Virus record (IMG/VR): IMGVR_UViG_3300029951_000020
Span: 1 to 64,000 of that record
Source: a virus
Length of the DNA stretch: 64,000 bases
Direction: 5' to 3' (one strand)
Below the pieces are notes generated by a model. That model ran no database searches and was not told the DNA's origin. It was given only the letters and a program-made list of their open reading frames with translations. The first letter of the stretch is position 1; every line of letters starts with the position of its first letter. A program made the position numbers and the translations under genes. This document shows positions 29,700 through 31,349 of this stretch, piece after piece.

Positions 29700-29776
29700 T
29701 GGCGCCCAGACCGAGGATTGAACTCGGGACCTCGCGGTTCATCAGGCCGCGCGCTCTGCCGCTGAGCTATCTGGGC
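29700..29776 (-). tRNA. tRNA-like gene with a 9-nt anticodon loop CCUGAUGAA; best reading is anticodon GAU
   Basis: Hand-folded cloverleaf. Acceptor GCCCAGA/UCUGGGC, D arm GCUC-AGCGGCA-GAGC, anticodon stem CGCGG/CCGCG, variable loop AGGUC, T arm CCGAG-UUCAAUC-CUCGG, discriminator G, encoded CCA. Confidence 0.7.
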
Positions 29777-30942
29777 GAAAGAATAATGTCTGCAAGCCGC
29801 GCTGGAATCATCGACCGATCCTGCGCCGCGTATTTCTGGGCGAACCGGTCCGCTCCCTCCCGCAGCGAATCCTCCTCCAGCGCCATCGAAAGAGCGTAGT
29901 CGACTCCGGTATCCGCGTCGCCCATCACCACGACCCCGCCGCTCTGCGCCAGCCTACGCCCCACCAGCTCGCGCTCCAGCGTGTCCGGCCAGACCACACC
30001 AGGCTTGCCGGCCAGCAGCATCTCGGTCGAGGTGCCGTGGGGTGAGTAGGAGAGCCAGGCGTCGCACTGTTGGGCGCGGTGCCGCAGGTTGGTCAGACGC
30101 GTGGCCATAAATAGCCCTGGTCGTAGGTACGGCGTCAGGTAGTGGGCCTCGATCTGGTCGGCGACCAGCAGCACGTCGGCGTCGCAGTCGCGCAGCGCCG
30201 CCAGCATCTCGTCCAGGTGGGCGTGCGGCCGCAGGTAGGCGAACACACGCTTGGCGTGCTTACTGGGCCACGGTTTCTCGCTCACCAGATCGTCGTCCGG
30301 CAACCCCAGATACTCGTCGCCCTGCCGACCCTCATAGTGATCCATCTCCGCGTACGTCAGCAGCGCCCGCTTCGCCCCGGAGTAGATGTGCTGCAGCTTC
30401 TCGTACGGCTCGAAGCCAAGGTCGACCAGAGCGCCGTTGAGGAGCGTGCAGACGGCCTCCTCGTTGTGGATCAGCGTCGTCTCCGGGATGGTGGACCCGA
30501 AGACAGGGAACGCAGGGAACGGCTCGACCAGCGGCGGCACGTCGAATCCGCAGCCGATCACCGTCCGCGGCAAGCCGAGTGCGCGCGCCGCGACCAGCGC
30601 GATCGGCGAGTAGTCCGCGACCACGGCGTCGACGTGGTGGTTGAGCATCATCGTCGACCAGTGCTTGATGCGGCGAGACAGCTCCTCCGGGTTGTTGAAG
30701 CCGGCGTTGTACAGGATCGTGGCGTGGCTGAACTGCATCGGCAGTTGATGGCCCGGTCGCGACTGCTGTGGCGCATGGAACACGCGGCCGAGGTCCGGCT
30801 CCAGGATATGCCGCGCGGCGTGCGTATCGGCGACGGCGAACAGGCACTCGTGGCCGCGCTTGACCAGTTCCTTGGCGGCGATGCGCAGGGACGCGAGGTG
30901 GCCGTAGCCGGCGCCCATCTCCCAGCAGAGGAGGATTTTCAT
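29767..30942 (-). CDS. GT-B glycosyltransferase, GT1 (UGT/MGT-like) family
   Basis: N-terminal MKILLCWEMGAGYGHLASLRIAAKELVKRGHE and C-terminal SPHGTSTEMLLAGKPGVVWP..E match the GT1 pattern. The ATG overlaps the HNH stop (ATGA). The TAG stop lies inside the tRNA acceptor stem. Confidence 0.8.
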   Translation of the reverse strand: MKILLCWEMGAGYGHLASLRIAAKELVKRGHECLFAVADTHAARHILEPDLGRVFHAPQQSRPGHQLPMQFSHATILYNAGFNNPEELSRRIKHWSTMMLNHHVDAVVADYSPIALVAARALGLPRTVIGCGFDVPPLVEPFPAFPVFGSTIPETTLIHNEEAVCTLLNGALVDLGFEPYEKLQHIYSGAKRALLTYAEMDHYEGRQGDEYLGLPDDDLVSEKPWPSKHAKRVFAYLRPHAHLDEMLAALRDCDADVLLVADQIEAHYLTPYLRPGLFMATRLTNLRHRAQQCDAWLSYSPHGTSTEMLLAGKPGVVWPDTLERELVGRRLAQSGGVVVMGDADTGVDYALSMALEEDSLREGADRFAQKYAAQDRSMIPARLADIILSPR

Positions 30943-31349
30943 TGAGCGCTCATGTCCCGCTGTCTGATCCGGTCGTCGATGGTACGCGGCCATAAGGGAA
31001 ACTGCTCTGGCTCGGCGAACAGGTCCGGGTGCCCATGAAAGCGCCAGTGGTTGCTTTTGTGCGCGTTCAGGTCATGGCGCAGAACCTGCAAATTATGCTC
31101 GTTATTGAGGCCGCTCGCATATCGGCCGTGTAGTGGTATCCGATGGTCCAACGTATGCAGCACGCCTGTCTCCTTCGTCAATCTGCGCGCCTCCTTCAGC
31201 AGCTCGCGCATCTTGCTACGATTAGCCCACACCGGAGACGCGACGATGCACCGCTCGATGTATTTGCGGCGCGGATGGCGCATGAACCAGGGCTTCTGCT
31301 GCTCCATTGCGCGGCGGTAGCAGGGCAGAGCGTAGCGATAGATGCTCAT
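30939..31349 (-). CDS. HNH endonuclease
   Basis: LDHRIPLHG....GLNNEHNLQVL....N..K.N is an HNH core. Trimmed to ATG 31347-31349 (ATGA overlap). Confidence 0.75.
   Translation of the reverse strand: MSIYRYALPCYRRAMEQQKPWFMRHPRRKYIERCIVASPVWANRSKMRELLKEARRLTKETGVLHTLDHRIPLHGRYASGLNNEHNLQVLRHDLNAHKSNHWRFHGHPDLFAEPEQFPLWPRTIDDRIRQRDMSAQ

Follow-up and report, generated by a model that had tools for sequence, protein, structure and literature searches.

Phages are known to encode glycosyltransferases (GTs) that act in the glucosylation of DNA, the seroconversion of O-antigens, and the glycosylation of virions. Here we analyze a GT gene at the distal end of the replication operon of an uncultured phage, in a stretch of 64,000 nucleotides (nt) that comprises positions 1-64,000 of IMG/VR record IMGVR_UViG_3300029951_000020 (hereafter the window), and we find that it probably derives from another source, an accessory GT gene found in an adhesin operon for type Vb secretion. 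The closest described systems are those in which a cytoplasmic GT, acting as the third partner of a two-partner secretion (TPS) system, decorates the secreted exoprotein, as in HMW1ABC of H. influenzae and EtpBAC of enterotoxigenic Escherichia coli (PMC2877744, PMC3983070). In bacteria of the order Nevskiales, orthologs of the phage GT likewise share an operon with tpsB and a giant tpsA. HMW1C, however, is a GT41 N-glycosyltransferase, whereas the phage GT and its orthologs are GT1/MGT-like by sequence and structure. The Nevskiales operon also differs from the HMW1C and EtpC loci in that it adds FecR-like and SapC genes, and glycosylation of its TpsA would be expected by analogy with those loci; the phage carries the GT only, without TPS genes.

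Other described enzymes and gene sets resemble parts of this locus. The baculovirus ecdysteroid UDP-glucosyltransferase (EGT) is, like the phage GT, a virus-borne GT1 enzyme of the GT-B fold captured from a host lineage, but its virus infects eukaryotes, its substrate is a steroid hormone, and its identity to the phage GT is 14%. The natural-product enzymes OleD/OleI, CalG1-4, VinC, LanGT2, EryCIII, and YjiC/YojK have the same fold and the same C-terminal nucleoside diphosphate (NDP)-sugar motif, but their identity to the phage GT is 12-18%, and the lineage of the latter is found at TPS loci, not in biosynthetic clusters. The T4 α- and β-glucosyltransferases (AGT and BGT) and the thymidine-hypermodification modules of the Mesyanzhinovviridae provide precedents for a GT-B enzyme in a phage replication module, and the related phage Sonora modifies its DNA; the GT described here differs from the T4 enzymes in being acidic, in having no sequence similarity to them, and in that no hydroxymethyl-base pathway was found with it. 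Phage tRNA islands that include peptidyl-tRNA hydrolase (PTH), RF1/ArfB-like, and RtcB genes, as in prophiT49-2 and jumbo rhizobiophages, share with this locus the placement of PTH2 beside tRNAs and the pairing of PTH2 with a gene that we call orf90. Here a siphovirus of ~77 kb carries a reduced set, consisting of a single tRNA, PTH2, and orf90, and the tRNA overlaps a protein gene.

A sequence-only reading of this locus had proposed that an HNH endonuclease gene, the GT gene, the tRNA gene, and PTH2 constitute one mobile, HNH-led cassette of four genes. Our analysis does not bear this out. We propose, with moderate confidence in the account as a whole, that the distal end of the replication operon acts as a hot spot for cargo, with at least two unrelated acquisitions, and does not house one system.

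The Glycosyltransferase and Its Bacterial Relatives

The GT gene (29767-30942, minus strand) encodes a protein of 391 amino acids (aa) that we identified by fold, motifs, and phylogeny. An AlphaFold 2 (AF2) model of the protein (pLDDT 92.6, pTM 0.91) was matched by Foldseek to the PDB structures of VinC, CalG1, LanGT2, OleI, YojK, and EryCIII (E 1e-17 to 1e-15, TM 0.62-0.72) at sequence identities of 12-18%, and a search of the PDB with a profile of 24 homologs retrieved YjiC (E 3.5e-13) together with CalG, SsfS6, and OleD. Two sets of residues are invariant in the 24 homologs: G10, G14, and H15 in the Gly-rich loop (G-x-G-H) and H302-G303-T..E307..G312-K313-P314..P319..E323 in the C-terminal NDP-sugar-binding motif. 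Family knowledge suggests that these residues are catalytic or donor binding. Because the profile matches, the superposition of the AF2 model by Foldseek, and the invariant motifs agree, the protein is a GT-B-fold, GT1-like enzyme, which is how the sequence-only reading had classified it. That reading had also suggested structure prediction followed by Foldseek as a check, and the enzymes that this procedure matched were GT1 enzymes, not the O-antigen or teichoic-acid GTs of prophages. A seroconverting prophage Gtr, O-antigen, or teichoic-acid GT (GtrB-type GT2 enzymes of the GT-A fold and membrane proteins of the GtrC type) was considered as a candidate and rejected on the basis of the soluble GT-B fold and of the lack of any tblastn match among 50,697 phage genomes.

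Matches to curated families fell below threshold in Pfam (EryCIII-like_C, 19.8 versus 31.7 bits, and Glyco_trans_1_3) and in NCBIfam (MGT, 20.8 versus a cutoff of 260; activator-dependent GT, 21.7 versus 440). Judged by its sequence, the GT thus forms a divergent lineage outside the curated MGT, EryCIII-like, and activator-dependent subfamilies. Among viral structures, the best match was the baculovirus EGT (E 3e-13, TMq 0.65, 14% identity), and structural similarity to phage GTs was poor (TM <0.5). No relative was detected by tblastn in the 50,697 phage genomes of INPHARED, and none was found in IMG/VR; a PHROGs search with the GT and a blastn search of INPHARED with the region from HNH to PTH2 returned nothing useful.

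The closest genomic relatives of the GT (37-50% identity) are all from Nevskiales: Nevskia soli DSM 19509, which is the top match at 50% identity, Solimonas, Stagnimonas, Panacagrimonas, and Stenotrophobium. In these bacteria the GT gene is the final gene of an operon that encodes, in order, TpsB, a giant TpsA, a FecR-like protein, SapC, a 362-aa protein (in Nevskia only), and the GT. Gene calls and Pfam identify TpsB as a ShlB/FhaC protein with POTRA domains and TpsA as a protein of 1,100 to >4,000 aa with a TPS domain, and in one bacterial contig a second tpsA follows the GT. By tblastn, the TPS-GT synteny was found in ~20 Nevskiales genomes (for example at L004 7147-11179, L014, and L100) and in one more distant gammaproteobacterium. 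The FecR-like protein has a weak match to the LapA retention module; for SapC and the 362-aa protein no solved or named relatives were found, and the 362-aa protein and a 522-aa protein had no family or structure match. The TpsB-TpsA-FecR-SapC-GT operon seems to represent a type Vb secretion system with an accessory set that has not been described before, and the layout of the operon would be, by analogy, that of a TPS system with a dedicated modifying enzyme.

In a neighbor-joining tree with 300 bootstraps, the GT of the window was monophyletic with those of two related phages, P0014 and the L095 protein (10408-11595), in 100% of the replicates, and the three joined the Nevskia clade in 87%. 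Because the phage GTs are monophyletic and adjoin the Nevskia enzymes, we infer that the gene was captured once from a Nevskia-lineage genome and was then inherited vertically behind the HNH gene; the GT phylogeny also makes bacteria of this lineage the probable host clade. The phage branches are longer than those of the bacterial enzymes (mean distance to outgroups, 1.18 versus 0.80), and 48 of the 117 columns (41%) that are at least 90% conserved in the bacterial orthologs are altered in at least one phage GT. The phage GTs also exceed all other family members in acidity, with net charges of -7 to -12 (versus -5 to +10 in bacterial orthologs) and isoelectric points of 5.75-5.86 (versus 6.15-9.53 in 30 Nevskiales-type orthologs), and in this comparison of sequences acidity is a derived trait of the phage clade. 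The faster change of the N-terminal domain, together with this charge shift, suggests that the acceptor of the phage enzyme has drifted.

Inheritance of the HNH-Like Gene and Its Neighbors

The HNH-motif gene (30939-31349, minus strand; 136 aa) precedes the GT gene, and its TGA stop codon shares ATGA with the GT start at 30942, exactly as had been read from the sequence. Its product has three close homologs (73-85% identity), which allowed the co-inheritance of the four genes to be followed in related phages. L095, a phage contig of 41 kb in which the ParB, polymerase A, HU, and primase genes keep the order seen in the window, has the HNH gene (73% identity) followed, with a GTGA overlap, by a gene for a 395-aa GT that is 46% identical to that of the window; neither a tRNA nor PTH2 was found there. 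The JGI 3300050821 contig has the HNH gene (73%), then the gene for P0014 with a 4-nt overlap, then convergent genes, without PTH2. In L096 the HNH gene (85%) is the last gene, with a convergent KOW-like gene 180 nt on; GT, tRNA, and PTH2 were all not found in this contig, the lineage of which either lost the GT or never had it. Nor was the tRNA found in L095, L096, or L097. The HNH gene therefore occupies the same position in all four related phages, this one included, and the GT is present in three of the four; the tRNA and PTH2 (with orf90) occur in this phage only. The three phage GTs are only ~46-50% identical to one another, yet all are intact and full length and retain the donor-binding and catalytic motifs and the start/stop coupling to the HNH gene. 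The predicted conservation of an HNH-GT-tRNA-PTH2 order thus largely failed in L095, L096, and the JGI contig, where the HNH gene stands alone or with the GT, and the tRNA and PTH2 belong to a separate module. L095 also carries, on its minus strand at 11504-12328, a 274-aa gene that lies, downstream of the GT, in the corresponding cargo hot spot and in the opposite orientation; its product contains two copies of CxxC...EMHHxDY...WLCxxCH, a classic Zn-finger HNH signature, without a Pfam match.

In the HNH-like protein, D68-H69, N86, N95, and K98 are invariant across nine homologs, and the protein matches phrog_26577. The Pfam HNH family was matched by two of the nine members (E 0.038) and not by the window protein; in a PDB profile search the segment aligned weakly to the HNH active site of Cas9 (E 0.066); and the AF2 model (pLDDT 63), which has a predicted ββα core, gave ColE7 as its best Foldseek match at a nonsignificant E of 3. 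Of the earlier assignment as an HNH endonuclease, the D-H...N...N motif stands, and statistical support for membership of the HNH family is weak. Homologs that are 35-45% identical and annotated as HNH are present in cultured Achromobacter, Burkholderia, and Bordetella phages, where they sit in replication modules without any GT, and a metagenome scan yielded 15 further HNH loci, none of which had a GT or PTH2 except this phage's own copy.

The most widely conserved partner of the HNH-like gene is the upstream Cys-rich, Zn-ribbon-like open reading frame (ORF) (31549-31938, minus strand), which the metagenome gene callers missed. This ORF shows codon-like conservation with L095 and L096, its stop overlaps the start of the intervening orf68 (ATGA), and by tblastn its adjacency to the HNH gene is kept in 2 of the 15 scanned loci, the distant contigs L115 and L116. 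The Zn-ribbon ORF and the HNH gene look like the true conserved pair. Because the HNH-like gene is present throughout the relatives, where it is the last or near-last gene of the replication operon, we regard it as a resident of this phage group, unlike a sporadic homing endonuclease that carries cargo. A free-standing homing endonuclease that mobilizes its neighbors was rejected on three grounds: the HNH gene is not sporadic, the cargo does not move with it, and the phage GTs are monophyletic.

The tRNA-PTH2-orf90 Block

The tRNA and PTH2 genes that the sequence-only reading had named are both real. The tRNA gene (29700-29776, minus strand; 77 nt with an encoded CCA) was identified as tRNA-Ile(GAU) by Rfam (53.8 bits versus a gathering score of 29) and by ARAGORN. 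The gene overlaps the GT ORF by 10 nt, its 5' end coinciding with the 3' end of the ORF, and the GT stop codon (TAG, 29769-29767) corresponds to U8-A9-G10 of the tRNA. The overlap is as first described, except that the TAG lies just after the 7-nt strand of the acceptor stem and not inside the stem. In Rfam, UAG at positions 8-10 belongs to the tRNA consensus, and an ORF that runs into a tRNA in this frame will therefore always end there.

DNA homology between the window and L095 ends at '...ATT xTx CT', 5 nt before the 5' end of the tRNA. Past this junction the window reads TTCGCCCAGATAG (tRNA) and L095 reads GAGCGCTTGA, and the protein end changes from '..IVLSA*' to '..IILSPR*' in the window, with three new codons and the frame preserved. 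Shared sequence returns at ~28835. Because the homology to L095 stops at the junction and the protein ends differ, alignment places the tRNA block as an insertion exactly at the 3' end of the GT gene that replaced its last codons and stop. The tRNA itself has G37, a G73 discriminator, a C31-A39 mismatch, and a short D-loop. E. coli tRNA-Ile carries A37 (the t6A site) and A73, and tRNAs that read ANN codons normally have A37.

PTH2 (29285-29599, minus strand, from the first ATG; homology to ~29650) scores 50.6 bits against Pfam PF01981 from the ATG and 65.8 bits with its upstream extension (gathering score 23) but is below the NCBIfam Pth2 equivalog cutoff (49.1 versus 126). The homology runs in frame for at least nine codons upstream of the first ATG, GTG, or TTG ('..LLTAILVRTDLG-M'; window 29600-29650, minus strand). 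In IMG/VR contig L131 (2974-3021) and in Sinorhizobium phage Phosso (L102 3950-4000), the conserved N-terminal strand 'KLRIYSIIRGDLE-M' is likewise coded upstream of the first Met; the ORF listing of L131 shows no canonical start upstream, and the annotated start in Phosso sits at that Met. The comparison of these sequences suggests a noncanonical start or another unusual form of initiation for PTH2.

Cultured phages rarely carry PTH2: there are five records, among them a Mycobacterium prophage (prophiT49-2) whose PTH2 shares an island with tRNAs, RtcB, and an RF1-like gene. PTH2 relatives are encoded by 80 IMG/VR contigs, mostly from very large phages, and in 34 of the 80 there are tRNAs within 3 kb; the 492 kb scanned around PTH2 loci contained 166 tRNAs. 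In five IMG/VR contigs, tblastn detected homologs with 30-36% identity to orf90 (29003-29275, minus strand) on the downstream side of PTH2, at a distance of 260-600 nt. At the 80 other phage PTH2 loci no GT or HNH relative was found nearby. The proximity of PTH2 to tRNAs and its pairing with orf90 elsewhere therefore point to the block as a reduced form of a known phage translation-maintenance island. Other scans of IMG/VR gave nothing useful (an exact scan for the tRNA anticodon arm; single-protein pattern scans for primase, PTH2, and HNH), and a word-indexed search for PTH2 homologs returned the query itself only. Among the 166 tRNAs near the IMG/VR PTH2 loci (L121-L200), 16 have the anticodon CUA (amber suppressors; ARAGORN label 'Pyl'), which hints at a link between PTH2 and large phages that recode stop codons or carry suppressors.

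The tRNA is poorly explained as compensation for codon usage: AUC accounts for 85% of Ile codons in the phage and 94% in Nevskia genes, so there is no codon gap, and this candidate role was rejected. Pth enzymes hydrolyze the N-acetyl-aminoacyl-tRNAs produced by GNAT toxins, a group that includes ItaT, which acts on Ile-tRNAIle (PMC4942678, PMC6125619, PMC9241777), and phage tRNAs are able to bypass tRNA-targeting immunity or defenses (PMC10264068, PMC11555353). Because Pth detoxifies the products of GNAT toxins and phage tRNAs bypass tRNA-targeting immunity, a counter-defense role for the tRNA-PTH2-orf90 block is plausible.

DNA Modification Genes

The sequence-only reading had noted no hydroxymethylase or nucleotide kinase, the usual partners of a DNA-hypermodifying GT, and Pfam searches of the large ORFs and tblastn with the Sonora enzymes agree with it. 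The thymidine-hypermodification module of Sonora (L094; region compared, 12679-21220) comprises a ThyA-like gene, a kinase, two aGPT-Pplases, and a dCMP deaminase. No deoxynucleoside monophosphate (dNMP) hydroxymethylase, thymidylate-synthase homolog, kinase, or aGPT-Pplase was found in the window and the next 10 kb of the genome, a span that leaves ~3.5 kb of the ~77-kb genome uninspected, and tblastn of the Sonora enzymes against the window matched only primase, polymerase, and RecD. Hypermodification genes beyond the window were rejected as a candidate, as the next 10 kb encodes terminase, portal, head, and tail proteins. Because modification partners are missing, the GT is acidic, and its ancestry lies in a TPS operon, DNA is an unlikely acceptor. 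The region of the window that was compared with it (39997-48900) encodes a RecD-like helicase, proteins like Pam3 gp32-34, and an SNF2 helicase, and it has no counterpart of that module. The SNF2-family helicase (799 aa; 45815-48214, minus strand) contains Hint/intein domains at ~158-455 (Pfam Hint_2, 2.7e-9; Vint; Intein_splicing), and its gene is probably interrupted by an intein.

Layout of the Operon

The source phage is a ~77-kb siphovirus of which assemblies recur in metagenomes. Its replication module has ~50% protein identity to that of Stenotrophomonas phage Sonora and ~66% DNA identity to Pseudomonas Ab18/PaMx11-like phages. The replication operon, on the minus strand, opens with genes for helicases, a ParB-like protein, DNA polymerase A, and primase and ends, in order, with the Zn-ribbon ORF, orf68, the HNH-motif gene, the GT gene, tRNA-Ile(GAU), PTH2, and orf90. 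Start/stop overlaps of 4 nt join most of its genes, including the Zn-ribbon ORF to orf68 and orf68 to the HNH gene. Because such overlaps are usual in the operon, the ATGA between HNH and GT does not mark a special pair. There are no promoter-like or terminator-like signals between the HNH, GT, tRNA, and PTH2 genes.

The block from 31.56 kb down to the HNH gene had been described as visibly lower in GC than its surroundings. This holds for 31350-31560, the GC of which (0.47) is in the lowest 0.6% of segments of equal size, but not for the HNH gene (0.59), which is near the mean of the window (0.607), or for the GT gene, which at 0.664 is in the top 1.5% of equally long segments. As the GT gene is GC rich and apparently host derived, the low-GC argument for a mobile cassette fails for it. 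The low-GC segment, of ~200 nt, contains orf68 (31346-31552, minus strand), has no counterpart in L095, and is otherwise found only in copies of the same phage. Within it lies the perfect hairpin that had been reported at 31439-31462, and we find there a perfect stem of 10-11 bp with a 4-nt loop (dG -19.3 kcal/mol, z = -3.3). At the other end of the region, a perfect 14-bp inverted repeat with a 9-nt spacer (28830-28866; dG -24.2, z -6.9) marks the meeting point of two convergent operons and the right edge of the phage-specific insertion, and homology to L095 and L096 picks up again immediately past it. Neither hairpin has a U tract (at 28830-28866 on either strand), and both were rejected as intrinsic terminators. 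A repeated mobile element was also rejected as an explanation for the low-GC insert or for the boundary segment, because the window holds no further copies of them.

Discussion

The explanation that we consider best, and somewhat better than an even prospect as a whole, combines a resident HNH gene, a captured GT with a protein acceptor, and a separate tRNA module. The GT would be expressed with the early and middle replication genes and would be an active NDP-sugar-dependent transferase that glycosylates a non-DNA acceptor, most likely a protein. By descent, the ancestral acceptor would be a large β-helical exoprotein, by analogy with HMW1C. The present acceptor may be a TpsA-type surface exoprotein of the host, which would result in receptor or surface remodeling like seroconversion at the protein level, or it may be a phage virion protein. 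After capture, the GT would have evolved faster and become more acidic with its binding and catalytic motifs intact. The tRNA-PTH2-orf90 block would be a separate translation-maintenance module that was inserted later and in this phage only; its insertion would have removed the native '..SA-stop' and left a GT ORF that runs 10 nt into the tRNA and ends at U8-A9-G10. The module would preserve a functional pool of Ile-tRNA in the face of tRNA-directed stress or toxins from the host and would not serve codon compensation.

Several points weigh against this explanation. The protein acceptor is a proposal drawn from analogy. The close structural neighbors of the GT all glycosylate small molecules (macrolides, enediynes, angucyclines, and sterols), and tblastn found no TpsA-like protein in the window. 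A phage structural protein that resembles TpsA was likewise rejected as a candidate acceptor, because four TpsA proteins, FecR, SapC, and the 362-aa protein (unk362) gave chance-level tblastn matches to the window. The TPS synteny is guilt by association, found mostly in one bacterial order, and more distant GT homologs lack it; the host is identified solely from the GT phylogeny. The altered columns of the phage GTs are concentrated in the N-terminal, acceptor-side domain, which could reflect a new acceptor or partial decay. With regard to the tRNA module, the tRNA has G37 and G73, and although its cloverleaf and GAU anticodon are present, its charging with Ile is a prediction; PTH2 has no canonical start for a full-length form between the upstream TAA and the ATG at 29599; and the enzyme shown to counter TacT-type toxins is bacterial Pth1, not PTH2.

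Because every close structural neighbor acts on small molecules, the main rival is a small-molecule GT that inactivates an anti-phage or antibiotic metabolite or a host signal, in the manner of macrolide GT1 enzymes or the baculovirus EGT. The top 50 structural matches in the PDB are all small-molecule GT1 enzymes, the best viral match is the EGT itself, and the weak Pfam and NCBIfam matches are to the EryCIII-like, MGT, and activator-dependent families. We nevertheless consider this rival unlikely: the orthologs lie in TPS exoprotein operons and not in biosynthetic or resistance clusters, the curated MGT score (20.8 bits) is far below its cutoff (260 bits), and identity to the structural matches is only 12-18%. 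The GT might instead be a decaying or neutral passenger without a phage function, as its longer branches (1.18 versus 0.80 to outgroups), the change, in one or more phages, of 41% of the columns conserved in bacteria, its absence from L096, and its overwritten native stop would allow. This is improbable in view of the persistence of an intact, full-length gene in three lineages that are only ~46-50% identical, with donor and catalytic motifs and HNH coupling kept, and of a frame that survived the tRNA insertion at a cost of three new codons.

The position of the gene in a replication operon beside a nuclease-motif gene recalls DNA glycosylation for anti-restriction, as by the T4 α- and β-glucosyltransferases. 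Phage DNA GTs also have the GT-B fold, and related Mesyanzhinovviridae hypermodify thymidine, according to the annotation of Sonora. We rate this reading as quite improbable, since the hydroxymethylase, ThyA-like gene, kinase, and aGPT-Pplase are all missing from the span inspected, the GT has no sequence relative among the 50,697 phages and a TM below 0.5 to phage GTs, and the phage GTs are the most acidic of a family that descends from a TPS-operon enzyme. The proposal of a single HNH-mobilized cassette whose genes cooperate, for example through a GT that acts on tRNA or translation, draws on the contiguity of the genes on one strand, their tight HNH/GT and GT/tRNA overlaps, and the lack of promoter-like or terminator-like separation. 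It is largely refuted, and we give it very little credence: the four genes are not co-inherited, the HNH gene is not sporadic, the GT/tRNA overlap is an insertion scar, a GT or HNH gene is near none of the 80 other PTH2 loci, and a GT or PTH2 is at none of the 15 HNH loci apart from this phage's own.

If the captured GT does modify a protein, a further step is conceivable, although it is doubtful when its parts are taken jointly. The Nevskiales TPS enzyme and its phage copy may form an uncharacterized GT1-type family of protein GTs, analogous in function to HMW1C but unrelated to it. The phage copy would then either glycosylate the giant surface TpsA of the host anew, so that a receptor is masked or remodeled, or modify the phage's own tail or capsid proteins. 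A secondary possibility is that tRNA maturation affects GT output. Cleavage by RNase P at 29777/29776 would remove the GT stop codon; if the tRNA matures from the operon transcript, the stop would therefore be lost and the processed transcripts would be nonstop GT mRNAs. Nonstop mRNAs are substrates of ribosome rescue (PMC3949413, PMC3985003), and such transcripts would couple the output of the GT gene to this process and to PTH2, which lies downstream.

The main point of interest is the captured TPS-operon GT and the uncharacterized bacterial operon behind it. If the acceptor is a protein, the bacterial enzymes would constitute a new family of TPS-partner GTs, and the phage copy would represent a new route by which a phage remodels surface proteins or virions. 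The locus also shows cleanly, and in a datable way, how accessory genes accumulate where a phage operon ends: a tRNA module overwrote the stop codon of the GT gene without destroying the gene. That module, tRNA-Ile, PTH2, and orf90, would represent, in minimal form, the translation-maintenance islands known from large phages and is a candidate for counter-defense against toxins that damage or acylate tRNAs.

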